Source of the DNA: an uncultured Phycisphaeraceae bacterium
Lineage (GTDB): Bacteria > Planctomycetota > B15-G4 > JADJEK01
DNA length: 46,226 nucleotides
Assembly (NCBI GenBank): GCA_964580365.1
Contig: CAZOLL010000001.1
Span: 1-46,226, forward strand
Direction: 5' to 3'
Of this stretch, positions 2,874 to 46,226 are shown in pieces. Position 1 is the first letter of the stretch, and every line of letters begins with the position of its first letter. The position numbers were made by a program, and so were the translations under genes. The notes beneath the pieces are model-generated. The model did no database searches, was not told the origin of the DNA, and was given only the letters and a program-made list of their open reading frames with translations.

Positions 2874-3356
2874 ATGGGCGAGGGCACCGCACCGAAGAGT
2901 GCTTTGGGCCGCATCCAAGACTGGGTTCGGGCCGGATCGACGGTGGTGCTTGTTGCCAGCGCGGTCGCGGCGTACTTCGTCTCGCGGCATGACGTCGAGA
3001 CGCTCGCCTCGAAGTGGGACGAGGCGCAGGCCGCGGCGCTCGAGAACCAGAAGGCGACGAACACCGGGCTCGAGAAGGTCCGCGAGGCCGTCGTCGAGCT
3101 CAAGGTCGAGAACGCCAAGTTCGGCGCGCGCATCGAGAGCGCGGCGACGAGCACGGCGGCGATCGCGGCGTCCGCGGTCACGCAGACGCAGATGCAGGAG
3201 CACATCCGCGCGGCCGACCTCGAGCACAGCGCGATGAAGAAGTCGATGCAGGACCTGATCGACGCGAACAGTGCGCGCATCGAGGAAGTGAAAGGTCGCG
3301 TGGACCGCCTCGAGCGCCAACAGGACGGAGTGCGCCCACCGGGGGGAAAGAACTGA
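2874..3356 (+). CDS. N-terminally membrane-anchored coiled-coil protein (i-spanin-like architecture)
   Basis: GGAGGGG SD before the ATG at 2874. TM segment STVVLVASAVAAYFV, then a long heptad-like region. Confidence 0.65.
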   Translation: MGEGTAPKSALGRIQDWVRAGSTVVLVASAVAAYFVSRHDVETLASKWDEAQAAALENQKATNTGLEKVREAVVELKVENAKFGARIESAATSTAAIAASAVTQTQMQEHIRAADLEHSAMKKSMQDLIDANSARIEEVKGRVDRLERQQDGVRPPGGKN

Positions 3357-6483: not shown

Positions 6484-7470
6484 TCAGGAGCCGGAGCGAC
6501 CCTCGCTCCCGGCGTGCTCGTTGGTTCTCGACGGATCGCACAACGCGCTTTCGCACTGGCAGGTTTCGTTGACGCGGGCGCGTTCCCTGAGCGCGGCGAG
6601 ATCACTCGCGTACATCTCGGACGCCGCGTGATGGGGCGGATACTTCTCGATCGCCAGCCGCAGCTCGCGCGCGGCCTCGCGGTGCCGCCCCTCGCGCTCG
6701 AGGTTGTATGCCGCGGTGCGGTGCTCGGCGGTCGTGCGCGCGTCCGCAGCGGCGCCGATTTCCGCCGGCAGCTTCGAGCGGTAACCGCGCCAACTCCCGC
6801 CGCTCCAGGTGAAGCCGGCGGCGCGGAGCGCGTCCAGAATCGCGCGCTCCGGCTTCTCCGCGAACGTGACGGCGACGTAGTCCCCGCCCTCGATCACGAA
6901 GCCGCCGGGCGCTTCGGCCGCTCGCGCCGCGACGCCCTGCTTGCGTCGGATCGTCTCGATCCGCTCTTTGTCCTTGCGGATCGTCGCGCCGAGGTTCGAG
7001 AGCTGGTACCCCTCGAACGGCGCTTTGACGAAGGACAGGCCGACCGACGCCACGCGAGCGCGTAGCCGCTCCAGATCGAGCCCGAGCGCCGCGAGCCCGG
7101 CCGCGTCGCCCTTGCGGTACAGCGTGTTGACCTGCTTCATGCGGTCGCGCTTCGCCTCGTTCTCGCGGATGCGCTCCTCGAGTCGTTCGACCGCGTCGGG
7201 GTCGTCGTCGAAGATGGTGCGGTCCAACTGATCGGCGAGCCCGCCCGCCTTCGCGCGGTGGTGGTCGGCCATCTTCGAGTGCTCGAAACCGCGCTCCTGC
7301 GCCGCGATCACACGCGCGCGCTCGGGGATGTGTCCGGGCTGCGTGTTGAAGGCGCAGTCGCCGCGGAACGGCTCGGCCACCTTGAAGCACGCGCCCGCCT
7401 TCGCGTCGCGGCCCTCCGCCCACTCCCTGCGCTTCTCCAGCTTGCGTTGCAGTCGTTCACGTCGCGTCAT
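6484..7470 (-). CDS. DUF3560-like protein
   Basis: AGGAG SD before the ATG at 7470. MTRRERLQRKLEKRREWAEGR...GHIPERAR...HSKMADHHRAKAGGL resembles the DUF3560 family by recall. An alternative ATG lies at 7500. Confidence 0.6.
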   Translation of the reverse strand: MTRRERLQRKLEKRREWAEGRDAKAGACFKVAEPFRGDCAFNTQPGHIPERARVIAAQERGFEHSKMADHHRAKAGGLADQLDRTIFDDDPDAVERLEERIRENEAKRDRMKQVNTLYRKGDAAGLAALGLDLERLRARVASVGLSFVKAPFEGYQLSNLGATIRKDKERIETIRRKQGVAARAAEAPGGFVIEGGDYVAVTFAEKPERAILDALRAAGFTWSGGSWRGYRSKLPAEIGAAADARTTAEHRTAAYNLEREGRHREAARELRLAIEKYPPHHAASEMYASDLAALRERARVNETCQCESALCDPSRTNEHAGSEGRSGS

Positions 7471-8370: not shown

Positions 8371-8633
8371 CAGCTCGCCTCCGGCAGCTCGGCCAAGTAG
8401 CTCTCGATTTCCGCGCGCGAGCTGACCATCTTCGAGACGATTGGGTGCGGCTCCGTCCCGCACGGGTAGCGGAACGTCACGCCGAAGATGGCGCGGCCCA
8501 TCCATCGGCCCTCGCTCAGCTCGATGTGCACCGTGCTGCCGCGGAGTGTGCCGCGCCGGTACTCGAAGACGTCGGGAGTCATGAAGTTCGACCCACGAAA
8601 CGCGCCGCTCGTCGGAATTGGTTCGGTCTTCAT
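8370..8633 (-). CDS. Hypothetical protein
   Basis: 87 aa (MKTEPIPTSGAFRGSNF...), ATGA/TGATG-coupled at both ends. Confidence 0.6.
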   Translation of the reverse strand: MKTEPIPTSGAFRGSNFMTPDVFEYRRGTLRGSTVHIELSEGRWMGRAIFGVTFRYPCGTEPHPIVSKMVSSRAEIESYLAELPEAS

Positions 8634-8923
8634 CGGCCGGACCCCTCGATCGGGGCGGGAGAGCCGCCGAACTGCGCGGCGAGCTCCCGGTAGCGGTTCA
8701 TGGTGTATTCGTGCTCCTCCGCGCGCTCGCGCCAGTCCCGCTTGCACTGGTCGCTGATCGCCGGCTGCTCGGCGAGGCCGGCCCAGTACCGCGCCCGCGT
8801 CTCGGCGTGGGTCGCCGCCATGATCAACGCGGTGTAGATCATCGCCCGATCGTCGGTCGCCCGGTCCTCGGCGCTCATCGCCGCCCGCGCCGCGTCCTTC
8901 ATCTCTGCCTGCGTCCTGGTCAT
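8630..8923 (-). CDS. Hypothetical protein, first gene of the leftward operon
   Basis: AGGAG SD before the ATG at 8923 (MTRTQAEMKD...). Confidence 0.65.
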   Translation of the reverse strand: MTRTQAEMKDAARAAMSAEDRATDDRAMIYTALIMAATHAETRARYWAGLAEQPAISDQCKRDWRERAEEHEYTMNRYRELAAQFGGSPAPIEGSGR

Positions 8924-8966
8924 CGTCGTCGCTCCTGTTCCAAGCCCCGGGACCATCCCCGAAGCT

Positions 8967-9004
8967 CATGCGGTACATTGTACCTCTACCTATACTGTGG
9001 TCAA
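8967..9004 (-). promoter_or_regulatory. Sigma70-type promoter with palindromic operator motif (leftward)
   Basis: The minus strand reads TTGACC-N16-TACAAT-GTACCGC-A. The motif TGCGGTACATTGTACC lies at 8969-8984. Confidence 0.6.
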
Positions 9005-9076
9005 ACCCCCATTCCGAAGGACCTGAATCCACTCCGTCCGCGTTCCGTCCCGAGCGCGGTCTCGAACCCCCACCCC

Positions 9077-9666
9077 CGTCCGACCCAAGCCCCTCCCGGT
9101 CTGACCCCGGCTTCGCTCCCGCGCATCCCCGTCCGACCGTAACTCCCTGGTGACGCCCAGACCTGCGGTCCCTCCCTTCGCCCTGGTCCGACCCGACCCC
9201 GGGCCTGCGGGGTTCTCCCTCCCCTCTCAGCTCTGGTCCGACCATGAACTCCGGTCCATACCCATGCCCTGGTCCGTCCTGAATCGAGACGGTCGGACCT
9301 CGGCCCTGGTCCGACCCCGGAGCGTGGGTTTCGACATGGACCCCGGTCGATGGGACCCGGGCCGGACGGATCTCTGGTCCATCCCCTTCGACAGGTCGGA
9401 CCGGAGCTCGGGCTCGGGGCTGGTTCTTGGAATTGGAAAGAGGACCCGAGGAGGGTGGAGGTACCGGAGCGGGGGTGGAAGGCGGGGAGGCAGAGGTTTC
9501 ACGTGGAACATCGGTCGAGAGTCGGGTGCGGGAGGTCGGACGGAGGTGCCGGTCGAGAGGAGAGCTCGAGGTCAGACCGGAGGGCAGGGTCGGGTCCTGC
9601 TTCGAAGAGGGGCGGATGTGGTCGGACGGGGGCGCGGGTGCGGAATCGAGGGCGTCGGGTTCGACC
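9077..9666. repeat. Array of about 14 copies of the 9-bp palindrome GGTC[C/G]GACC and near variants, in a gene-free region
   Basis: Copies at 9077, 9098, 9130, 9185, 9235, 9271, 9291, 9308, 9376, 9394, 9534, 9570, 9620 and 9658. CCCTGGTCCGACCC is repeated exactly at 9181 and 9304. Confidence 0.8.
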
Positions 9667-10296
9667 GGGGCTCGAGGTAGGGTCGAGAAGCGGCGGGCGG
9701 CGGTTGAAGGGGGACAGGTCTTCGACGGGTGGAGAGGCTTGGCGTTGGACGGCCGCTGCGCTCGCTCTCGAGCGGGGCGTCGCTCGCTTCGCGGCCGGGA
9801 TGGGATGATGGGGAGGTTGAGAAGAGTCGAAGGCGTGGCCGGGATCGGCAATTCCCCTAACCCCCCGGACCCCCCTTCCCCCATGACCGAAGCGTCACGA
9901 GGGGCGAGGTGCTGTACCGGCCTCAGCCGGAGCTTGGTCCGGGCGGAGCCGGCCCCCGAAGGGGCCGCTCCCCGGGGCGCATTCCTTTGACCTTCGGGCG
10001 CCCCCGCGAGCTTCTGATTCCGCCACCGACCGCGGTTCAGCCGGGCTCGCGCCGTGTCCGAAGGTTCCCGGTGGAGGTCTTGGATCGCCCTCCGTGAGCC
10101 GGTGCTCTTTCCGACCCCGTTTGCTTTTCAGCGCGCGGGGTGCGAGGCAGGTTGGCCGGCTTCCCGGTCCGCGCTGCCCTTGATGCGTTGGAATGCGCGG
10201 AACAGCCCAGGAGGGGCTTGACGTCGCGCAGGTGTGTGGGTGAAGTGCTCATGTCGGTCTGGACAATCGACACAGTCGCTTCTCGCGTCATGCGAG

Positions 10297-10500
10297 TCAA
10301 GAGCCGCTCCCCGTGGGCGGCTCTTTTCTTTTCACGAGCGCCGCGCGGATCTCGGCGAGCGTCAGCTCGCGGCCGGTGCGGCAGTCGAAGATGTACGTGA
10401 CGTTCGGCGGCACGCGCCCGATCTCCTGCATCACCTCGAACGCGCGCTCGAGCGCCTCGGCGTCCGGCTCCTCGCCGGGTTTCAGGCAGTAGGACTTCAT
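10297..10500 (-). CDS. Hypothetical protein
   Basis: 67 aa (MKSYCLKPGEEPDAEALERAFEVM...), ATGA-coupled. Confidence 0.6.
   Translation of the reverse strand: MKSYCLKPGEEPDAEALERAFEVMQEIGRVPPNVTYIFDCRTGRELTLAEIRAALVKRKEPPTGSGS
10299..10332 (+). terminator. Intrinsic terminator (plus-strand sense)
   Basis: AAGAGCCGC-loop-GCGGCTCTT followed by TTTTCTTTTC. It overlaps the 3' end of the convergent minus-strand gene. Confidence 0.6.
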
Positions 10501-10736
10501 GCGGCCCGCTCGCGGAGATCCGCGTCGAACAGTGCGACGTCCTCGCGCGACGACGTGCCGTGCCGCCACGTGATGTCGAGGCCGGCGAACGACGGATCGT
10601 TCTTGAGGTCGTGGACGAAGCACAACACCGCGATCTCCGTCTCGAAGTAGGCGGTCGGCGGGAACGGTTCGTCGAAGCGCGAGTGCGCCGTGAACTCGAT
10701 GACCCACCAGCGCGGCCACTGCGGCGCGCGCTTCAC
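10497..10736 (-). CDS. Hypothetical protein
   Basis: 79-aa ORF with a GTG start in a GTGA overlap with the upstream stop. Confidence 0.6.
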   Translation of the reverse strand: MKRAPQWPRWWVIEFTAHSRFDEPFPPTAYFETEIAVLCFVHDLKNDPSFAGLDITWRHGTSSREDVALFDADLRERAA

Positions 10737-11263: not shown

Positions 11264-11523
11264 CACCGCCTCCAGTTCAGAGCGTAGAGAGAAGCGCGCT
11301 CGCTCGCGCGCGTGAGCGACACGATGCCGATGCTCGTCTCGAGCTCGCCGCCGGTCCAGATGCGCGTCGGCCGCGTGTACGTGAACACCGCGTCGTCGGG
11401 AATCCGCCGAGTCGTGAGCCACCGCCACGCGCGAAGCCACCACGGCCGCGGCACGGTGAAGAACTCGAGGTGCGTCCCGACGGGGAACTTCGCTTCGTCG
11501 CTCTCGACGACGTTGATTTCCAT
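11263..11523 (-). CDS. Hypothetical protein (apparently leaderless start)
   Basis: The ATG at 11523 (MEINVVESDEAKF...) lies 7 nt downstream of the -10 box TAGCAT with no SD. Confidence 0.6.
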   Translation of the reverse strand: MEINVVESDEAKFPVGTHLEFFTVPRPWWLRAWRWLTTRRIPDDAVFTYTRPTRIWTGGELETSIGIVSLTRASERASLYALNWRR

Positions 11524-11558
11524 GCGGTACATGCTACCGTGCGGCCTTCCCGCGACAA
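11523..11558 (-). promoter_or_regulatory. Sigma70-type promoter with palindromic operator motif (leftward, leaderless)
   Basis: The minus strand reads TTGTCG-N16-TAGCAT-GTACCGC-ATG. The motif TGCGGTACATGCTACCGTGCGG lies at 11523-11544. Confidence 0.6.
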
Positions 11559-14102: not shown

Positions 14103-14271
14103 CGCGCTCGTACTTCGCCGACACCTCGCGCGCCTTGTCGCGGATGCACAGCTCGAGCGCGGCGGTCTTGGAAAGGCCGAGCTGCTGCGCGATGATGGCG
14201 AGCAGCTTGGTCCCCTCGATCGACATGGAGTAAGACGTCTTCCGGTACCGACGACCTGGTGTTTTGCCCAT
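14071..14271 (-). CDS. Ribbon-helix-helix (Arc/CopG-like) DNA-binding protein, leaderless
   Basis: MGKTPGRRYRKTSYSMSIEGTKLLAIIAQQLGLSKTAALELCIRD shows a basic arm, beta strand and two helices. The ATG lies 7 nt after the -10 box TATGAT. Confidence 0.6.
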   Translation of the reverse strand: MGKTPGRRYRKTSYSMSIEGTKLLAIIAQQLGLSKTAALELCIRDKAREVSAKYERGARLASGSPA

Positions 14272-14307
14272 GCGGTACATCATACCGTGCCACTGACCGA
14301 CGATCAA
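14271..14307 (-). promoter_or_regulatory. Sigma70-type promoter with palindromic operator motif (leftward, leaderless)
   Basis: The minus strand reads TTGATC-N17-TATGAT-GTACCGC-ATG. The motif TGCGGTACATCATACCGTGCC lies at 14271-14291. Confidence 0.65.
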
Positions 14308-22422: not shown

Positions 22423-23871
22423 ATGGCGATCACCAATCTCGACACCGCCGGCAACATCCTCCACATCTACTACACGCGCTACCTGACTTCGCAGAGCAAC
22501 GACCGCACGAACGTGCGCGACATGCTCTTGAAGGAGTCGAAGAAGTTCGACGGGTCGCACGCGCGCATCGGCCTCATGGACTCCTACCCGGTCACGGGTG
22601 GTCCGCGCGGCCCGAGCGCGACGATCCCCGACGCGGTCCCGACCGACGTCACGGTGTCGGACATCTTCCTCACGTACCACTACTACCCCATCGAGATCGC
22701 GTGGGACGTGGAGGAGCAGTCGAGCGGCGAGCACTCGTGGATTCGCGCGTCGGCGATGGAAGTCGACCGCGTCCGCAAGTGGTCGCTGATCAACTTCGAG
22801 ATGAACACCGTGCTCGACGGCACGGGCGTTCTCGCGGGCGGCGCTGCGACGGACGGCACGTACACGAACCTCGCGAAGTGCACGCGCACGAGCGAGACGC
22901 CGCTGACGTTCACGGTGTCGACGACCTACGGCGTGCGCTTCGTGAAGGGCATGCGCCTCGAGTTCTACGCGAACCCGACGGCGAACTGCATCGTGATCGG
23001 CAACGACGCGACGGTGTTCGTGAAGCGCGCCGGGCCGAGCGTGACGCAGAGCTACTTCACGATCGACACCGTCTCGCACTCCGGCGGCACGACCACGATC
23101 GTGTGCGTCGAGAACACGGCCGGCGGCGCGACCGACCCGTTCGACACGGGCAACGGCGACTTCGTCACGCAGGAAGGTGCGCTCTTCCTCGCGACGGCGC
23201 CGGCGCCCGACGAGTGGTGGACGAACTGGGAAATCGGCATCGAGGGCCTCGTCAACGTGGCGGGCACCGCGCCGAACCGTTCGAACCCGCTGCGGCCGAA
23301 CGCGAAGCCGTCGGGCATCCAGCCCTCGGCGTCGTTCCTCTGCCAGAACAAGGCGCAGTCCGGCTTCTGGCAGTCGCTCTACGTGGACGCGGCGAACGGC
23401 ATCCTCGGCCCCGGCATCTTCGAGCAGTCGAACGTCGAGCTCCAGCAGGTGGGCTCGAAGGGGATCGAGGACATCGACTTCTGCCTGACGCACCCGCGGC
23501 AGGTGTCGAAGTTCCGCCGGCAGCTCATGGCGGCGATCCGCTTCCAGGTGTCCGGCGGCGACTCGCCGGAGCTCCCCGGCGGCGCGGCGTCCTCGACGGC
23601 CGAGACGCGGAAGTACATCCACTGGGGTCACATCCCGCTGGTGCCGTCGCGCTTCGCGAACCCGATCCAGGCGCGCCTCATCAACAAGGACACGATCAAG
23701 GTCTTCGAGAACACGGCCTTCAAGTTCTACACGGGTGACGGCGCCATGTGGCACCGCAACCCCAACAGCCTCGCGGCGTCGCGCGCGGTCGCGTACAAGT
23801 ACGAGTGCCTGGGCATCCTGTCCCGCAACTCGAACCTGATGATCGACCACCTCGACAGCTCGAACAACTGA
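22423..23871 (+). CDS. Major capsid protein (probable)
   Basis: 482 aa with a strong SD. Called from its position after the scaffold gene. Confidence 0.65.
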   Translation: MAITNLDTAGNILHIYYTRYLTSQSNDRTNVRDMLLKESKKFDGSHARIGLMDSYPVTGGPRGPSATIPDAVPTDVTVSDIFLTYHYYPIEIAWDVEEQSSGEHSWIRASAMEVDRVRKWSLINFEMNTVLDGTGVLAGGAATDGTYTNLAKCTRTSETPLTFTVSTTYGVRFVKGMRLEFYANPTANCIVIGNDATVFVKRAGPSVTQSYFTIDTVSHSGGTTTIVCVENTAGGATDPFDTGNGDFVTQEGALFLATAPAPDEWWTNWEIGIEGLVNVAGTAPNRSNPLRPNAKPSGIQPSASFLCQNKAQSGFWQSLYVDAANGILGPGIFEQSNVELQQVGSKGIEDIDFCLTHPRQVSKFRRQLMAAIRFQVSGGDSPELPGGAASSTAETRKYIHWGHIPLVPSRFANPIQARLINKDTIKVFENTAFKFYTGDGAMWHRNPNSLAASRAVAYKYECLGILSRNSNLMIDHLDSSNN

Positions 23872-31693: not shown

Positions 31694-34600
31694 GTGCCGG
31701 GCATCGGCGACCAGTGGTACCAGCAGGGGTTGAAGCAGCAGCAGTGGCGCGCGCGACACGGCGACGAGCCGATGCCGCGCCCGTTGGACCCGCAGGCGAT
31801 CGGGCGCGCCGCCGCGCTCGAGGAGATGCGCCGCGAGGTCGAGGGGTGGGACCCGATCAGCCGCTCGCTCCTCGCGGGCTCGACGTCCTTCGCTGAAACC
31901 GCGAGCTTCGGGCTCCTCCCGCGGGAACGCATCTACCGCATGGCCGGCGGCGACCCCGAAATGGCGGCGCTCGCCGGGCAGGCGATCCGCGAGGACGAGG
32001 CGGCGCACCCGTGGACGGCCGGGCTCGCGTCGACGGCGGGCGGGCTGTACGGGATGACGACGGGCGCGGGCCTGATCTCGAAGGGCCTGTCGCGCACGGC
32101 GCTCCCGCTGGTGGGCCGGTACGCGCCGGAAGGCATCGCGAAGGGCCTTGCCGAGCCGATGACGCGGCAGCTCGCGCGCTCGGCGACGTCGTTCAGCGTC
32201 CAGCAGGCGGTGACGCGGGGCGGCGGGCAGATCGCCTACCGCTCGGCGACTGGGCAGCCGCAGGACTACCTCGAGTCCGCCGGAGAGGCGGTCCGCGGGG
32301 GCGCGCGCGGCGCGGTCGAGGGCGCGGTCTTCCCGATCGCGGGACAGGTGGCGCGGAACATCGCCGGCCGGGTGGTGCGGATCAAGCCGGGCATGCAGCC
32401 GACCCGGCTCCAGTCGATCGGGCGGGACGTGATCGGCGAGTCGGCGTTCTTCGCCGGTCTGTCCGCGGCGACCGCCGAACCCGGGCACCGGCTCGAGGCG
32501 GCGGGGCAGGGTGCGATCGCAGGCCCGCTCGCGTCGATCGGTTCGTGGGGCAAGAAGATCCGTGGTGAGGTGCCGCACGAGGGCCTGACGCCCGACGAGG
32601 TCGCCACGCTCGGCCCGCAGGTCGCCGAGGCCGAGGTCGCCGGCCGCGGGCTCCAGGGCGCGAACGACTTCCTGAACTCGACGGCCGCGCTCAAGAAGTA
32701 CGGGCCGGTGACGCCGGCGGCGCGCGCCGCGCTCCAGGCGGACCCGCAGCGGTTCGCCCGGCTCGACCCTTCGATGGACCGGGCGAAGGCGCCGGTGTTC
32801 CGGCCGGAGCGGGTCGCAGCCGCGCCGAACCCGAAGGTGCTCGCGGACGATCCGGTGGTGGGCTCGATCTACCGCGCCGAGACGACGCCGGCGGACTTCC
32901 GCGCGTTCGTGGATCGGCAGATCCCGTCGTTCCTGATGCCCTCCGAGCCGGACACGGTGCTGACGCCGAAGGAGAAGGCGACGCAGGCGGCGTTCGGCGA
33001 GCTCCCGCAGGAGGCGCTCCGCCGCGCCGGCGCCGACGTCATTCAAACGAAGCGCGGCACGATCGCGTTCTGGCCGGACCTCGTGTCCGAGGTGTTCCGC
33101 CACAAGGACAGCTCGAGCCGCGTCTACCTCGAAGGGCTGTTGAAGCGGCCGATCACGGGCAAGACGAAGTTCACGCACGGCGCGCTCGCGATGTCGATGA
33201 CCCGGCTCGCGAACAACGACGCGCTCGGCGAAGTGCTCGGGTACGGCGTCGGCCACGCGACGAAGACCGGAAAGGACGTCGCCATCACCGGCCGCGACGA
33301 GCAGGGGTACGAGGTCCGCACCGTCCTCACGACGCAGGAGAAGAAGCCCGAGGCGATCAAGGGCCTCATGCGCGCGGGGGCGAAGCGGATCGAGGTGCGC
33401 GACCCGACGCAAACGCCGGAGATCATCGGCGAGCGCGTGTCGACGGAGATCACGCCCGAGGGGCCGAAGCTGACCGGCGCGCCGGCGATCCCCGAGACGA
33501 CGACGCGGACCGAGCCCGGCCCGTCGCGAGAACTTCCTGGCAGGTTGATGTCTCGTCGTGCGGAAGATGCGCAGGAGATGCGCCGCCAGGAGCCGATGGC
33601 CGTCGACTCGAAGGGGCGCGTGTTCACGGTCGGGTTCGTCGCCTCCGGCCCGTCGCCCGGGCGCATGATCGAGGAGGTCTTCGGACGCCACGACACGCGC
33701 GAGGCGGCGCTCGCCGAGGTGGAGCGCGAGAACCAGACCAGCGCCACGAAGGCGCCGCTGACGGTGAAGCCCGGCCGCAACCCGCGGGAGTGGCTCACGG
33801 TCCGGCAGATCCCGTTCGGCGAGGTGGGCGGGTTGCACCAGCAAAAGGCGCTCGCGGACCGCGGCATGTGGGAGATCCAAAGTCGCGCCGCCGAGCAGCA
33901 GCAACGCGCGCTCGAGCGCGAGCTCGACCTCGCCCGCGAGCAGCAGCGACGCGCGCTCGAGCGCGAGCAGCAGATGGCGGAGATGCTCCCGCAGCCGGCC
34001 GGGCCGGGGCTTCCCGCGCCGCCGGAAATGAAGGCGCTGCCGCGCCCGAAGGGCGCGCTGATCCAGCACCCCGCGCATTTCATCGCCGGTGAAACCGGAC
34101 CCGCGCAGGTGACTGGGTCGCGGTCCCAGCCGCCCCGCGGCGCTGGCACGTCGCGCCGACGGCCGGCTCCCGAGGTCGCGAAGGCGCTCGGACGGCTCGA
34201 CGAGATCAAGGCGGGGCTGCGCGGCGGCACCATGAAGGCCGCGGACGTCCAGGGCGAGGCCCGGCAGCTCATGGGGCGCATCGACGAGATCGAGCGCGGC
34301 CAGCGGCTCGAGCGCGAGCCGGAGCGCATCGCGAAGCTGACGCACGCCGCGCCCGAGGCGGTGCAGGAGGGCGAGAAGTCGGTCCTGTACCCGAACGAGT
34401 TCGAGCAGGGCGGCGAGCGGTTCGGCGTCACCTACGCGGTCGTGCGCGACAAGGACATCGCCGTCTCGCACGACGACAAGACGCTGGCACGCAACCCGAA
34501 CTACCCGCGCGAGCTCCAGAACCGGAACCGCGAGCAGGACGGCCCGAAGATCGACGTGCAGGTGGCGGGGCTCCGCGAGGACCCCGGCCGCTATGCGCTG

Positions 34601-37600
34601 CCGTCGACGAGCGGCGACCAGGGACCGCCGGTGGTCTGGCGCGACGCCGAGGGCAAGATCGGCAAGCCGGGCGCGCTCTACGTGCTCGCCGGCAACGGCC
34701 GCATGATCGCGCTGCGCCGCTTCGCGCGGAAGTCGTTCGCCTACTCGACCGCGATGGCGGAGCAGGCGAAGAAGCTCGGCATCGACGTGAAGGAGCCGAA
34801 GGGCAAGGTGCTCGTCCGCATCCTCGACGACATGCCGTTCAAGGATGCGGCGAAGCTCGTCGGCAAGTTCCAGGGCGGCTCGAGCGCCCCCGAGGGTCGG
34901 TTCGAGCGCAGCCGCGGCGCGGCCGGAAAGGTCGGCCTCGAGAAGATGGGCGACGTCGTCGTGAAGTGGGCGCCGGATGGGCCGCTGAACGCGACGAACC
35001 TCGAGACGTTCGAGAAGAACAACCCCGACCTCGTGCGCAAGGTGTTCCCGGGCGCAGAGTCGGGCGTCGGTGTGGACGCCGAGGCGCGCGCGCAGCGGTA
35101 CAAGGACGTGCTGACCGGGATGCTGCCGCTCGACCTGCTCGACGCCGCGGCGCGGCTGCCGGAGCAGGTGCAGCAGGACATCTACGAGATGGCGCCGCAG
35201 CTCCACCGCTTCGCGGCTCTCGTGGTCGAGGGCAAGATCGACGATCGGTGGGACTTCATCCCCGACATGGCGCGCGCGATCACGGTGCTGCCGGAGATCC
35301 GCGAGCAGTTGAAGAACCTGAACCGCGCCGCGATGGGCGCGCTCCAGATCGAGCTCTTCAAGGGCGGCGGCGGGTCGTCGCTGCGCGACGTGGTGAGGGC
35401 GCTCGAGGGGCTCGGCGACGATCGCGCGCGCATGACGCTCGGCATCGCGATCGGGTGGAGCAAGGACCGCGACTCGGTCGGCTACATGGCGCGCCGCATC
35501 GCGGCGTACACGCAGCTCGCGCTCGACGGGTCGGCGAAGGCGCCGGCGACGATGTTCAAGATGTCGCACGAGACGAAGACCGGCGCGGTCGACTACGTCG
35601 CGGACTTGTTCAACAAGACGGTCAGCGAGCAGGCCACCGCTTTCCTCGAGCGCGTGCGCGCGAACCGCCGTACCCTCGATGCGGGCGTCGCGCTCGGAAA
35701 GCTCCAGAACAAGCTCTTCCCCGGCGTCGAGACGCTGAGTCCGAAGAACAAGCAGCACGCGGCCTACATCAAGTTCTACGACGAGATGATGGGCAAGGTT
35801 CGCGCGGGCGGCACGCTGGAGGAGCACGTCACGAACGCACTCGCCACCAAACCGACGAAGAACGCCGACTGGCTCGAGCTGCTCGAGGGATTCCTCCGCG
35901 GCGAGGCCAGCGAGGGAGAACTCCATGACATCGCAGCCCGGCACGAACCGTCTCGACCGACTCGCGAGCGCGGCGAGCGAAGCGAACCTGAACCCGAACG
36001 AGCTCCCGCTGGCGATGACGCCGCGGCGCGAGAGCCTGAACGACCTGTCGAGGATCGCGGCGAGCGAGAGCCCGGACATCGAGGAGCTGACGCAGGAGGC
36101 GCTGATGGACCTCGAGCGGAGCGGGCAAAGCGAATCAAGCACACCTACGTCCCCGCGCGAGCAGCAAGTGCTGAACGAATCCCTTCTGACCTTGTCCGAC
36201 ACCTAGACCAGCACCAGGTCGACGCGATCTCGCACGCTCTCGAGGCGCTGGACGCGGCCGACCCCGGGGCGCGCGGCTTCGTGATCGCGGACGGCACCGG
36301 CGTCGGGAAGACGCGCGAGATGCTCGCGGTCGCGGAGAAGTTCCGCCGCGAGGGCAAGGTGGTGGTGCTCGTTGGCCCGGCGAAGATCGGCCCGAAGGGC
36401 AAGCCGATCTACAAGAGCTCGCTGGCGAGCGAGGCGGAAGAGCTCGGCATCGCGCTCAACTGGGTGGCCGGCGGCACCGCCGCGCCCGGCCGCGTCAACA
36501 CGACTTCGTACTTCTGGCTCGACAAGGTCAAGGTGCCGAGCGGGGCGATCCTCCTGTTCGACGAGGCGCACGCGCTCAAGAACGCCGACTCCGGCCAGAC
36601 GAAGGCGGCGCTCGAGCTGATCAGCAAGGCCGACGCCGTCCTGTTCGCGTCCGCGACGATCATGGACAAGGCGGTGCACCTGCCGTACTTGGCGCGCGCT
36701 GGCGCGCTCGAGGGGCGCACCGTCGCCGAGCAGCTCGCGCACCTCGGGATGCGCCTCGAGGTCGAGCACCGCATCAACAAGAAGACGGGCAAGCCGTTCA
36801 AGCTCGAGCGGTGGATTCCCGACCCGAGGGCGCGAAGCCCGGACGGGAACCTGCGCGGCAGCCTCGAAGTGACGCGCCGCCAGGGAGAGCTCGTGCGGCG
36901 CATGGTCGCCAACGGCCGCGTGATCAAGCGCGAGATCGGCATGGAAGGCGTCTCGGTCACCGTCGACAACATCAAGCTCGGCGAGGCGTGGCAGGCCGTC
37001 GAGAACAAGCTGCGCGAGAAGTTCGACGGCAAGGTCTTGCAGATGCACGAGAGCATCCAGCAGGAGCCGTTCAAGATCCCGCACGTCGTCAAGATGGTGT
37101 CGGAGGAGCGCGCCGCCGGCCGCTCGGTGATCATCTTCGCCGCCCGCGTGAATGAGTCGGCCGCGGTGAAGCGCCGCTACACGAAGGAAGGCGAGGTCAT
37201 CGAAGAGGTCGTCCACCAGACCGAAGGCACGTTGAAGACGTTGCGCGAGAAGTTGATCGAGGCCGGCATCCCCGAGGCAGAGATCGGAGAGATTCACGGT
37301 GGCGTGAAGGCCGATGTGCAGGAGCGGAGTCGGGTCGAGTTCCAGAGCAACAAGCGCAAGGTGATCATCGCGACGGCCGAGTCTGGCGGGGCCGGCATCA
37401 ACCTCGACGACACGACGGGCAAGTTCCCGCGCACGATGATCGTGATGACGGCGCCGTACTCCGGCGTGACGAACGCGCAGGCGTGGGGCCGCATCTGGCG
37501 CCTCAACACGAAGGGCGACGCGCGGATTCGGTACGTCTACTCGGACAGCGCGACCGACGTGCGACGCGCGGCGATCGTCACCAAGAAGATGCTCCACCTC

Positions 37601-38191
37601 GGCGCGGCGCTCCAGGGCGAGCACAAGCGGCTGATGGAGGTCGTCGACGGGATGACCGACATCTCCGACGCGGCGATCGACCAAGTCCTCGGCGAAACCG
37701 TCGCGCACTCGAGCAAGCCGGACACGGTCGGCAAGCTGCCGGTCGCGCCGCTCGACACCGCCGCGGAGCGGGGCCTGATGAACGAGCTGCGCTACAAGTG
37801 GGCGAAGGGCGACAAGAACGCCCCGGTCCGCGTGAAGGCGCGCGTGCTCGACGCGGCAAAGGTCGTGGTCGAGAAGCTGCGCGGCATGGGCATCGACGCC
37901 ACGCTGCGCGAGTCGGACGGCATGGTCACGCTGAACCGCAAGTTCGCGAAGGAAGCCGAGCCGAGGGCGCAGGACATGATCCGAACCGAGAGCGTCGAAA
38001 CCGCGTCGGCCGAGTCGCTGCGCGAGATGGTGAAGCGGTCCGAGGAGATCAGCCCGCTCGAGCAGATCCAGGCGAAGCTCGCGATTCGGCTCGCCGAGCG
38101 GCCGGATGACGCCGAGTCGATCGCGCCGGTGCTCGACGAGCTGTCGGCGAAGATCGAGTCGCTGTACCGGAAGGGCAAGAAGCCGTGCTGA
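31694..38191 (+). CDS. Giant (2165 aa) polyvalent protein: glycine-zipper N-terminus, ParB/DdrB-like domain, SF2 (SNF2/strawberry-notch-like) helicase
   Basis: A single open frame. YPRELQNRNRE...VLAGNGRMIALRR is ParB-like. ADGTGVGKT (motif I), DEAHALKN (motif II) and QAWGRIWR (motif VI) mark the helicase. Codon bias drops between 35925 and 36206. Confidence 0.6.
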   Translation: MPGIGDQWYQQGLKQQQWRARHGDEPMPRPLDPQAIGRAAALEEMRREVEGWDPISRSLLAGSTSFAETASFGLLPRERIYRMAGGDPEMAALAGQAIREDEAAHPWTAGLASTAGGLYGMTTGAGLISKGLSRTALPLVGRYAPEGIAKGLAEPMTRQLARSATSFSVQQAVTRGGGQIAYRSATGQPQDYLESAGEAVRGGARGAVEGAVFPIAGQVARNIAGRVVRIKPGMQPTRLQSIGRDVIGESAFFAGLSAATAEPGHRLEAAGQGAIAGPLASIGSWGKKIRGEVPHEGLTPDEVATLGPQVAEAEVAGRGLQGANDFLNSTAALKKYGPVTPAARAALQADPQRFARLDPSMDRAKAPVFRPERVAAAPNPKVLADDPVVGSIYRAETTPADFRAFVDRQIPSFLMPSEPDTVLTPKEKATQAAFGELPQEALRRAGADVIQTKRGTIAFWPDLVSEVFRHKDSSSRVYLEGLLKRPITGKTKFTHGALAMSMTRLANNDALGEVLGYGVGHATKTGKDVAITGRDEQGYEVRTVLTTQEKKPEAIKGLMRAGAKRIEVRDPTQTPEIIGERVSTEITPEGPKLTGAPAIPETTTRTEPGPSRELPGRLMSRRAEDAQEMRRQEPMAVDSKGRVFTVGFVASGPSPGRMIEEVFGRHDTREAALAEVERENQTSATKAPLTVKPGRNPREWLTVRQIPFGEVGGLHQQKALADRGMWEIQSRAAEQQQRALERELDLAREQQRRALEREQQMAEMLPQPAGPGLPAPPEMKALPRPKGALIQHPAHFIAGETGPAQVTGSRSQPPRGAGTSRRRPAPEVAKALGRLDEIKAGLRGGTMKAADVQGEARQLMGRIDEIERGQRLEREPERIAKLTHAAPEAVQEGEKSVLYPNEFEQGGERFGVTYAVVRDKDIAVSHDDKTLARNPNYPRELQNRNREQDGPKIDVQVAGLREDPGRYALPSTSGDQGPPVVWRDAEGKIGKPGALYVLAGNGRMIALRRFARKSFAYSTAMAEQAKKLGIDVKEPKGKVLVRILDDMPFKDAAKLVGKFQGGSSAPEGRFERSRGAAGKVGLEKMGDVVVKWAPDGPLNATNLETFEKNNPDLVRKVFPGAESGVGVDAEARAQRYKDVLTGMLPLDLLDAAARLPEQVQQDIYEMAPQLHRFAALVVEGKIDDRWDFIPDMARAITVLPEIREQLKNLNRAAMGALQIELFKGGGGSSLRDVVRALEGLGDDRARMTLGIAIGWSKDRDSVGYMARRIAAYTQLALDGSAKAPATMFKMSHETKTGAVDYVADLFNKTVSEQATAFLERVRANRRTLDAGVALGKLQNKLFPGVETLSPKNKQHAAYIKFYDEMMGKVRAGGTLEEHVTNALATKPTKNADWLELLEGFLRGEASEGELHDIAARHEPSRPTRERGERSEPEPERAPAGDDAAAREPERPVEDRGEREPGHRGADAGGADGPRAERAKRIKHTYVPARAASAERIPSDLVRHLDQHQVDAISHALEALDAADPGARGFVIADGTGVGKTREMLAVAEKFRREGKVVVLVGPAKIGPKGKPIYKSSLASEAEELGIALNWVAGGTAAPGRVNTTSYFWLDKVKVPSGAILLFDEAHALKNADSGQTKAALELISKADAVLFASATIMDKAVHLPYLARAGALEGRTVAEQLAHLGMRLEVEHRINKKTGKPFKLERWIPDPRARSPDGNLRGSLEVTRRQGELVRRMVANGRVIKREIGMEGVSVTVDNIKLGEAWQAVENKLREKFDGKVLQMHESIQQEPFKIPHVVKMVSEERAAGRSVIIFAARVNESAAVKRRYTKEGEVIEEVVHQTEGTLKTLREKLIEAGIPEAEIGEIHGGVKADVQERSRVEFQSNKRKVIIATAESGGAGINLDDTTGKFPRTMIVMTAPYSGVTNAQAWGRIWRLNTKGDARIRYVYSDSATDVRRAAIVTKKMLHLGAALQGEHKRLMEVVDGMTDISDAAIDQVLGETVAHSSKPDTVGKLPVAPLDTAAERGLMNELRYKWAKGDKNAPVRVKARVLDAAKVVVEKLRGMGIDATLRESDGMVTLNRKFAKEAEPRAQDMIRTESVETASAESLREMVKRSEEISPLEQIQAKLAIRLAERPDDAESIAPVLDELSAKIESLYRKGKKPC
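35925..36206 (+). CDS. Embedded +1-frame ORF (93 aa) inside the linker of the giant ORF
   Basis: GGGAGA SD 5 nt before the ATG. Third positions are almost all G/C in this frame but only about half G/C in the giant-ORF frame over the same bases. Confidence 0.5.
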   Translation: MTSQPGTNRLDRLASAASEANLNPNELPLAMTPRRESLNDLSRIAASESPDIEELTQEALMDLERSGQSESSTPTSPREQQVLNESLLTLSDT

Positions 38192-41386: not shown

Positions 41387-41791
41387 ATGCCCCGCCCGTT
41401 CACGAAGATCGACACGCTCCTCGGCACCGCGCCGCTGCGCGGACGTGCTGGCGCGCGCGCGTTCGCCCGCGGCCGGTACGACCTCGAGTGGCTGTCGATG
41501 AAGACCGGGATGTCGTGCTGGACACTGCGCGAGATGCAAACCGGCCTTCGCCGGCGCCCGCGCTGGCCCTCGATCGAGATGGCGCGCATCATCGCCGCTG
41601 CGATGAAGTGCACCGAGGTCGAGCTCGTCGAGGAGCTGGCGGCGATGCGCGTGCGGTGGCACCTCCACTGCTACACCGTCCACCAGTCGACGGGCGTGGA
41701 CGACCAGATGAAGTGCGGCACGCCGGCGAACCCTCGTCAGCCGCCGGTGATCGCTGCGATGCAAGCTCTCGCTGACCACAAGGAGGAGTGA
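41387..41791 (+). CDS. XRE-like helix-turn-helix regulator
   Basis: LEWLSMKTGMSCWTLREMQTGLRRRPRWPSIEMARIIAAAM fits an HTH_XRE helix pattern. Confidence 0.5.
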   Translation: MPRPFTKIDTLLGTAPLRGRAGARAFARGRYDLEWLSMKTGMSCWTLREMQTGLRRRPRWPSIEMARIIAAAMKCTEVELVEELAAMRVRWHLHCYTVHQSTGVDDQMKCGTPANPRQPPVIAAMQALADHKEE

Positions 41792-42114
41792 TGTACGTCG
41801 TGTCCCAGGTCGAGCCGCTCCACGACAACGTGCTCGTGAAGCCGGAGATGGAGCCCGAGAAGGTCGGGGTGATCATCATGCCCGAGCAGTCGCGGCGCGA
41901 GCGCGCCGAGGGCGTCGTCATCGCGTGCGGCCCCGGTCGTCGCGGCGTGAACGGCGAGCTGATCCCGATGTCGGTGAAGGTCGGAGACAACGTGCTCTTC
42001 GGGAAGTACAGCGGCGCCGAGCAGGAAATCGGCGGAGAGAGCTACCGCATGATCCAAGACACCGAGATCATCGCGATCATCAAGGCGGTTCCGAGCGAGG
42101 AGGTTACGGTCTGA
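41791..42114 (+). CDS. groES: GroES/Cpn10 co-chaperonin homologue
   Basis: VEPLHDNVLVKPEMEPEKVGVIIMPE...GVVIACGPGRRGVNGELIPMSVKVGDNVLFGKYSGAE matches the Cpn10 pattern. AAGGAGGAG SD. Confidence 0.75.
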   Translation: MYVVSQVEPLHDNVLVKPEMEPEKVGVIIMPEQSRRERAEGVVIACGPGRRGVNGELIPMSVKVGDNVLFGKYSGAEQEIGGESYRMIQDTEIIAIIKAVPSEEVTV

Positions 42115-43607: not shown

Positions 43608-43681
43608 GTCGCGCGAGTAGTTCAGCGGCAGAACCCCGCAAACCGCGGGATGTCGTCGGTTCGAATCCGACCCGCGCGACC
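43608..43681 (+). tRNA. tRNA-like element (probably degenerate or pseudo-tRNA)
   Basis: Canonical T-arm GTCGG-TTCGAAT-CCGAC. D-arm GTTC-AGCGGCA-GAAC. 8-bp acceptor-like stem GTCGCGCG/CGCGCGAC. The anticodon arm is CCCGC-AAACC-GCGGG with only a 5-nt loop, and the junction spacings are non-canonical. Confidence 0.4.
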
Positions 43682-45838: not shown

Positions 45839-45873
45839 TTGACCGGCTGCGCCGATGCGGTATTATGTACCGC
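45839..45873 (+). promoter_or_regulatory. Sigma70-type promoter with palindromic operator motif (rightward early operon, leaderless)
   Basis: TTGACC-N16-TATTAT-GTACCGC-ATG. The motif TGCGGTATTATGTACCGCA lies at 45856-45874. Confidence 0.65.
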
Positions 45874-46226
45874 ATGGCGACAACCCACATCTTCCACGCG
45901 AGCGAGCTGCCGCTCATCGCGACGAACCCGGCCGCGTGGTCGCTCAAGCGCGAGGCCGGCGTCTTCTCCGACTCGGAGCCGGCCGCGCTCGGCCGCGCGT
46001 TCGCGCGCGCGATGGAGCTGGCGTGCAAGGTCGGCCGCGCGAAGGTCGACCTCGAGAAGGTGCGCGAGGAGTTCCAGGTCCCGATGGAGGACCTGCGCGA
46101 GCTGTGGGACCTCGTGAGCTACGACCCGGCGGGCTGGACGGCGGAGATGCCGTTCCACATGCGCTGGCCCTGCCCGGACGACAGCGGTGACACGATGGAG
46201 GTTCACTGCCGCGTCGACCGCGTGCG
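45874..46226 (+). CDS. Cas4/RecB-family PD-(D/E)XK exonuclease, N-terminal part; wraps the junction and continues in 3..764
   Basis: ATG at 45874 lies 7 nt after the -10 box TATTAT. The frame runs off the window end (MATTHIFHASELPL...WPCPDDSGDTMEVHCRVDRV) and matches the frame of ORF 24..764 once the 55-bp overlap is removed, giving about 353 aa in total. Confidence 0.8.
   Translation, partial: MATTHIFHASELPLIATNPAAWSLKREAGVFSDSEPAALGRAFARAMELACKVGRAKVDLEKVREEFQVPMEDLRELWDLVSYDPAGWTAEMPFHMRWPCPDDSGDTMEVHCRVDRV
46172..46226. repeat. Terminal direct repeat, copy 2 (circular-closure overlap)
   Basis: Identical to bases 1-55. Confidence 0.95.

Follow-up and report, generated by a model that had tools for sequence, protein, structure and literature searches.

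The window analysed here, the whole 46,226-bp stretch of contig CAZOLL010000001.1, is a phage-like contig of 68.7% GC that encodes a large terminase, a SU10-type portal with its adaptor and a major head protein (22423-23871). Other genes recognised in the window encode RecT, a PD-(D/E)XK nuclease, a single-stranded DNA-binding protein (SSB), a GroES homologue and a resolvase, and known relatives are missing for most of the remaining proteins. A gene-free stretch of 1.3 kb (8957-10296) is flanked on both sides by minus-strand operons, which extend from 11532 to 10297 on the right and from 8923 to 5307 on the left. The preliminary description of this DNA had recognised no credible gene here, a view borne out by codon-position GC, codon log-odds and independent gene calling: across about 8960-10300 no codon position reaches the third-position GC content (GC3) of real genes in this genome (at least 0.9), a codon log-odds model trained on the phage's own long genes detects no open reading frame (ORF) scoring 15 bits or more in 8924-10296, and an independent gene caller leaves the same gap in an identical public contig. 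Long ORFs at 9884-8370 (minus strand) and at 9150-9680, 9350-9808 and 9427-9990 (plus strand) were rejected, as their translations are low-complexity and not protein-like and the coding signal is absent. The gap contains a palindrome resembling parS, the centromere of chromosomal ParABS systems, and is tentatively read here, with somewhat less than even confidence, as a conserved noncoding maintenance locus organised around an orphan host-type centromere.

The parS-like palindrome GGTTTCACGTGGAACA (9495-9510) is located at the start of a G-rich arm and matches 13 of the 14 specified positions of the chromosomal centromere consensus TGTTNCACGTGNAACA, which corresponds to a single mismatch, and 15 of the 16 positions of TGTTTCACGTGGAACA; the ParABS consensus is quoted as TGTTNCACGTGAAACA (Livny et al. 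2007, as cited in PMC5512222; reviewed in PMC7333895). No second match exists in the window, where the expectation is 0.03 even with up to three mismatches allowed. Relatives were recovered through the large terminase, and four lineages are compared below: the window (W), L042, L044/L046 and L048. L042, whose terminase is 80% identical, displays a homologous 1.7-kb gap at the same position, and in L044/L046 and L048, whose terminases are 42-44% identical, the gaps exceed 1.5 kb and the order of the genes is rearranged. Each of these gaps contains exactly one parS-like site, reading TGTTACACGTGGAACA, TGTGCCACGTGAAACA or TGTCCCACGTGAAACA in the relatives, with no or one consensus mismatch in the four phages, and none occurs elsewhere in 94 kb. 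The site thus has the form of a chromosomal-type parS, a 16-bp palindrome within one or two mismatches of consensus, and its conservation exceeds chance, since 60 resamplings of 94 kb produced no such site and about 0.015 would be expected analytically. A centromere-like role had been suggested before, although by way of an array of GGTCSGACC palindromes; the role now finds its candidate in the previously overlooked site at 9495-9510, kept in four lineages, and not in that array.

The palindrome accompanies an abrupt change in strand composition. GC skew is -0.41 at 8975-9124 and +0.51 at 9425-9574, and the most extreme 300-nt skew windows of the genome adjoin here (-0.37 and +0.48; the genome mean is 0.017, with a standard deviation of 0.078). 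The C-rich to G-rich flip reported in the preliminary description is therefore real, comprising the strongest negative and positive skews of the 46 kb placed back to back. The skew profile centred on parS is identical in all four lineages, with a C-rich tract 300-600 nt to the left, a zero crossing 100-200 nt to the left and G-rich sequence over the 300 nt to the right. Between W and L044, nothing can be aligned at the nucleotide level besides parS and a short upstream word, GTGGGTT(T)CG, which precedes parS in all four lineages and in W falls within a conserved central block; GGGGGTGGGTTCGGCC lies upstream of parS in L044 and L048. The gap has been kept although the neighbouring genes differ, the left-flank proteins of W and L042 being unrelated. 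The parts best kept between W and L042 are the central block (9262-9375), parS, a hairpin at 9742-9804 and the distal segment at 9842-10146. A conserved ORF in homologues, which had been set as the refuting test, was looked for and not found: W and L042 share none, and the ORF of 322 aa called in L042, whose GC3 is 0.67, matches only short stretches of W, in differing frames. Thus, a single parS at the C-rich/G-rich switch, together with the gene-free gap and the skew profile, is kept in four lineages that are otherwise unalignable and differ in gene order. The features of the gap in the window are as follows.

8967-8984, unstranded: operator-like element, the 12-mer ATGTACCGCATG plus an inverted repeat GGTA-N5-TACC over the -10 hexamer.
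8977-9004, minus strand: strong sigma-70-type promoter (TTGACC, 16 nt, TACAAT) at the head of the operon that runs leftward from 8923 to 5307; left boundary.
9005-9330, unstranded: left arm, plus strand C-rich, skew to -0.41; its minus strand carries 26 runs of at least three G.
9078-9316, minus strand: seven left-arm copies of GGTCGGAC[C/G]NGRG, with plus-strand ends at 9085, 9106, 9138, 9193, 9243, 9279 and 9316.
9262-9375, unstranded: central block where the skew switches, conserved in L042 (1265-1377) with 75% identity over 116 nt.
9394-9666, plus strand: five right-arm motif copies, at 9394, 9534, 9570, 9620 and 9658.
9420-9850, unstranded: right arm, plus strand G-rich, skew to +0.51, with 23 runs of at least three G.
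9495-9510, unstranded: parS-like palindrome GGTTTCACGTGGAACA.
9742-9804, unstranded: conserved hairpin with closing stem GGCCGC/GCGGCC (CCGCTGC/GCAGCGG in L042), 78% identity over 65 nt.
9842-10200, unstranded: distal structured segment, a chain of local hairpins with compensatory substitutions relative to L042.
9851-9885, unstranded: C-rich block TTCCCCTAACCCCCCGGACCCCCCTTCCCCC, whose minus strand is a canonical G-quadruplex motif.
10299-10332, plus strand: intrinsic-terminator-like hairpin of 11 pairs with a plus-strand T-run; right boundary.

The distal segment is 69% identical to L042 over 323 nt, and consensus folds of the two sequences contain 20-23 pairs changed on both sides. In the structure named here, which was derived from the same two sequences that display the covariation, 23 of 93 pairs are compensatory, compared with 1-3 in slid controls and 11.5 +/- 2.5 in shuffles. 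The z-score of the fold is -3.1 for the plus strand and -2.5 for the minus strand, and comparison of fold energies between strands favours neither. The helix at 9945-9972 retains 7 of its 10 pairs through double changes and encloses a conserved tetraloop, UUCG when read from the minus strand; further hairpins are located at 9917-9930 (CCGGC-ctca-GCCGG) and 10113-10141 (ACCCCG-loop-CGGGGT). Pairing is therefore kept by compensatory changes, as expected of a structured RNA, between two sequences, and the evidence that the hairpins at 9842-10200 would be under selection is good but limited. Searches of Rfam gave no match at gathering thresholds and only chance-level matches at E values up to 5. 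The earlier suggestion that the region might be a large structured noncoding RNA is supported for the distal 9842-10200 only, where the compensatory changes relative to one relative were observed; no Rfam family corresponds to it.

Six of the genome's 11 G3 quadruplex motifs lie in the region, on the G-rich strand of each arm. The C-rich block at 9851-9885 is one of only two minus-strand loop-7 quadruplex motifs in the genome and is nearly identical in L042. Within this block, the word CCCTAACCCCCC-NNN-CCCCCCTTCCCC is also present in 19 unrelated metagenome contigs (L096-L114) of 44-74% GC, at least four of the longer ones having it within a short intergenic spacer; in about half of the occurrences (10 of 20) it is followed by GGGGAAGGGGGG to form a hairpin. 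It looks like a widespread repetitive extragenic palindromic (REP)- or terminator-like element, and the contigs sharing it were rejected as relatives, the word being a generic intergenic hairpin motif.

The palindrome array of the preliminary description is real as a cluster, and the positions that it gave are correct. Only five copies are exact 9-bp palindromes, and at one mismatch GGTCSGACC is found 30 times in the whole window against 28.5 expected, which is chance level, so that the signal lies in the clustering. The 8-mer GGTCGGAC/GTCCGACC occurs nine times in the gap as against twice in the other 44.9 kb (Poisson P about 2e-16), and 11 of the 19 GTCNGAC sites of the window fall inside 9078-9621 (544 bp), the other 45.7 kb containing eight. 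Alignment of the copies revealed an asymmetric unit, GGTCGGAC[C/G]NGRG with G-rich sequence after it. Left-arm copies are oriented leftward, on the minus strand, and right-arm copies rightward, on the plus strand, except that one additional left-arm copy, at 9291, has the opposite orientation. Nine exact and four near copies of GGTCGGAC are present in total. Their spacing is irregular (17-140 bp), and Tandem Repeats Finder reported no array in the region. The gaps of L042, L044 and L048 lack the array, L042 retaining degenerate remnants only, which suggests that it is a lineage-specific addition outside the conserved core; its sites are probably candidate binding sites for some protein of this phage. 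In the L042 gap, CTGGTGAAACC occurs three times (1207-1217, 1229-1239 and 1601-1611), two of the copies being 22 bp apart, and nowhere else in the contig; it contains the parS half-site GTGAAAC, with flanks (CTGGT...ACC) as in the CTGGTCCGACC motif of the window. A decayed collagen gene was considered as the source of the array and rejected, as triplet periodicity is absent, and a motif-pair scan of viral contigs returned only collagen-like Gly-Pro-Thr repeats in tail-fibre genes, which are irrelevant here.

The two arms had also been described as sharing inverted modules that could fold into a very long imperfect hairpin. The module pair given as an example exists (17 nt, 88% complementary), but the arms do not constitute a collinear inverted repeat: semi-global alignment of the left arm with the reverse complement of the right arm has a z-score of 1.6, which speaks against a long inverted repeat or cruciform, and the best local match covers about 60 nt (z = 4.6). 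The arms do pair in the minimum-energy fold (z = -2.5), because one is C-rich and the other G-rich, and the long hairpin is thus not supported as a specific structure.

At the left boundary, the preliminary description had pointed to a TATACT box at 8991, which exists, but the promoter-like element is on the minus strand at 9004-8977, whereas the plus-sense terminator that it placed at 10299-10332 was found. The promoter is the sole promoter-like site in 8600-10700, matching 10 of 12 positions where 0.1 such sites would be expected. The element ATGTACCGCATG that overlaps it has four exact copies in the genome, each heading an operon (8967-8978, 11521-11532 and 14269-14280 on the minus strand and 45865-45876 on the plus strand), against 1.15 expected at up to two mismatches. 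Upstream of every copy lies a TTGNNN hexamer, followed after 16-17 nt by TAnnAT, with the -10 hexamer inside (C)GGTA-N5-TACC(G), and the four sites look like promoters with one common operator, each at the head of an operon. At three of the four, transcription would be expected to begin at the A of the second ATG, so that the mRNAs may be leaderless. In L042, a variant of the element is located at the head of the right-hand operon (about 2880-2900). The terminator-like hairpin at the right boundary of the window overlaps the last codons of the minus-strand gene 10297-10500. In L044, where the gap adjoins the right-hand gene (3020-3270), two minus-strand T-run hairpins flank a long inverted repeat (3121-3196), an arrangement that resembles a small RNA gene of about 200 nt on the minus strand.

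Pfam searches gave no match to ParA, CbiA, AAA_31, centromere-binding ParB helix-turn-helix (HTH), Rep or integrase families in any ORF scanned, nor to ribbon-helix-helix (RHH) or HTH proteins among the same ORFs, and detected no DNA-binding domain in the neighbouring proteins. A self-contained parABS cassette is consequently not recognisable, there being neither an adjacent ParA-type ATPase nor a gene for a ParB HTH or ParR/ParG RHH protein. The 97-aa left-flank protein has zero homologues among 5.8 billion proteins. The sole ParB-type match is a DdrB-type domain inside a 2165-aa polyvalent protein (31694-38191, plus strand), where it covers residues 907-1043 and is accompanied by a Strawberry-notch/SNF2-like helicase (residues 1493-2001); encoded among virion genes, this protein is presumably injected with the DNA. 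ParB domains of the DdrB type are predicted to sense or degrade nucleoside triphosphates (NTPs) or DNA, by NTP binding or DNase activity, and not to bind centromeres (PMC5512222). Neither of the binders previously proposed for the array therefore holds, the phage's ParB-like domain being of this type and Pfam finding no RHH or XRE regulator. The only replication match near the region in Pfam or PHROG is a weak 'primase' PHROG hit to a DUF3560 protein (6484-7470, minus strand) 1.5 kb away. More than 500 metagenome homologues of the latter (543, at 50-67% identity) lie in unrelated phage or mobile-element neighbourhoods without an equivalent gap, which suggests that the gene moves between elements, and DUF3560 was for this reason rejected as an anchor for finding the gaps of relatives. 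A GroES (Cpn10) homologue is kept across the phage group at varying genome positions (41788-42114, plus strand, in the window; 4323-4637 in L044; 4796-5152 in L048), and a tRNA-Val at 43610-43681 (plus strand) has the anticodon AAC, unusual for bacteria and phages. Other searches for relatives gave negative results: BLAST of the region against phage and plasmid collections returned no match, neither the flank protein, the DUF3560 protein nor the major head protein identified relatives in IMG/VR, nor did the large terminase in a scan of reference genomes, and the operator motif and the L044/L048 hairpin word had only chance matches in IMG/VR.

How a locus with a host-type centromere might maintain the phage can be outlined as follows. 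The host's chromosomal ParB, a clamp dependent on cytidine triphosphate (CTP), would load at parS and spread onto the neighbouring DNA, tying phage genomes to the ParA/SMC positioning machinery of the host, so that the phage would need no partition genes of its own. The companion functions of the centromere are probably a replication origin and a noncoding RNA. The polarity of the skew is that of a bidirectional origin, with the G-rich strands leading away from the centre, and RNA transcribed outward would be G-rich and prone to R-loop formation. Since no initiator, polymerase or integrase is recognisable while RecT, an exonuclease, SSB and a resolvase are present, a protein-independent origin primed by RNA or an R-loop would be the most likely companion, to whose noncoding RNA the covarying distal hairpins would belong; the GGTCGGAC array may be a lineage-specific layer of protein-binding sites. 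An origin role appears consistent with the evidence. The wider proposal is that high-GC podophages place an orphan host centromere at the centre of a bidirectional R-loop-type origin and hijack the ParB-CTP clamp, and through it ParA or SMC, to position, segregate or protect the genome without a partition or initiator protein of their own; taken as a whole, this is doubtful.

Several observations weigh against a maintenance locus of this kind. Neither the GroES homologue nor the run accession pointed to a host, and a host ParB with this parS specificity is assumed, as is extrachromosomal carriage of the phage, which may be strictly lytic. The promoter search found none inside the region from which a primer or noncoding RNA could start. 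An AT-rich unwinding element is absent, the lowest GC inside the arms being 50% and the only segment at 40% GC being the promoter. Near-consensus DnaA boxes are distributed inconsistently, the gaps containing two in W, three in L044 and none in L042 or L048. The covariation of the distal segment comes from two sequences only and would fit RNA or single-stranded DNA on either strand. Finally, the mycobacteriophages that provide the precedent, described below, have ParAB genes and parS repeats of their own.

The explanation that comes next in order, although improbable, is an iteron-type origin or regulatory array, in which roughly 13 GGTCGGAC sites in two opposed clusters form the core and are bound by a phage initiator or regulator, perhaps the adjacent orphan 97-aa protein, that fires replication or controls the adjacent promoter. 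The extreme enrichment and ordered orientation of the sites agree with this, as does the start of the array about 70 bp upstream of the promoter 9004-8977, and the difference between W and L042 in both the adjacent gene and the repeat content is what would be expected if sites and binder co-evolve. The motif is certainly present in multiple copies, as in iteron origins, but an adjacent Rep gene is lacking, and the sites are missing from the L042, L044 and L048 gaps though the other architecture is kept there; the irregular spacing (17-140 bp) without a Tandem Repeats Finder array, the lack of a DNA-binding domain in neighbouring proteins and the lack of an AT-rich element likewise disfavour it. 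It is quite unlikely that the gap serves as a transcription insulator, in which RNA coming in from either side would be C-rich and G-poor, like a Rho loading site, and the region, with the boundary hairpins serving as terminators or sites of processing, would stop read-through between the two minus-strand operons and shield the centre. The arms are indeed oriented such that transcripts converging on the centre would be C-rich, a terminator hairpin stands at the end of the right operon and the equivalent place in L044 displays two minus-strand T-run hairpins. This leaves unexplained why the left arm is equally skewed, though no transcription unit points into it, and why parS and the central block are conserved, and 1.3 kb far exceeds what a terminator needs.

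The parS evidence that favours a maintenance locus would serve as well for a decoy, in which replicating parS copies soak up host ParB and disturb segregation, SMC loading or division to the phage's benefit, and no lysogeny functions were seen with Pfam; one site per genome, however, makes a weak sponge, and with the conserved skew and the structured segment unexplained a decoy is slightly less probable again than an insulator. Least probable, and held at very low confidence, is that the gap contains the physical ends of the genome, a direct terminal repeat or a pac/cos site, with the opposed motif clusters as terminase or end-processing sites. The SU10-type portal and adaptor indicate the podophage class, which has terminal repeats in noncoding DNA, and the contigs of two independent assemblies, L046 and L048, both start 450-480 nt upstream of parS, inside the C-rich arm; these starts may reflect a break in assembly or coverage caused by the extreme composition, or else a physical end of the genome. 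The large terminase gene, however, is 4 kb away with opposite-strand genes between, the motif clusters are not conserved and parS is given no role. Each of these alternatives accounts for less of the conserved architecture than does a maintenance locus around a host-type centromere.

Centromeres of the parS type are known from chromosomes, and from plasmids and prophages that have their own ParAB; in the literature searched, no case or direct precedent was found for a host-type parS retained alone on a phage. If the proposed role is correct, a phage that keeps only a host-type parS would imply that viruses can plug directly into the segregation and condensation machinery of their hosts, a case strengthened because the site resides in a long noncoding locus kept across lineages too divergent to align elsewhere. 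A second implication would be that a phage group without recognisable replication genes may have a protein-independent origin of replication.

The site resembles the chromosomal parS of ParABS systems as a 16-bp palindrome with no or one consensus mismatch in four phages, present as a single site in noncoding DNA. It differs in being carried by a phage without parA or parB and in lying exactly at a strong C-rich/G-rich switch, with ParB binding predicted only. Repeat-array centromeres and iteron origins include sopC of F (12 x 43 bp), incC and incA of P1 and oriV of RK2. These share with the GGTCGGAC array a short motif repeated many times at intervals of tens of bp, in oppositely oriented clusters, whereas here the copies are irregularly spaced, neither a partner protein gene nor an AT-rich element was found and the array is not kept in the closest relative. 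The R-loop or RNA-primed origins of the ColE1 RNA II type, as summarised in PMC7157519, appear similar in their G-rich non-template strand, RNA-like hairpins and independence of an initiator protein; here the G-rich arrangement is bidirectional and no promoter was found, and the resemblance is an inferred one. By analogy, the closest documented counterpart is provided by the non-RepA parABS mycobacteriophages, whose plasmid prophages replicate from a stretch of about 600 bp that adjoins parS, is noncoding and expresses RNA (PMC7157519). In these phages, the origin RNA and autonomous replication were demonstrated experimentally, whereas for the present locus both are predicted, and their own ParA/ParB and phage-specific clusters of parS repeats contrast with the host-type centromere described here. 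RedRock, Alma and LadyBird (PMC7157519) nonetheless share with the window a noncoding region of several hundred bp that lies beside a centromere and contains no conserved ORF, the absence of an integrase or Rep protein, and a sequence that diverges fast between relatives.

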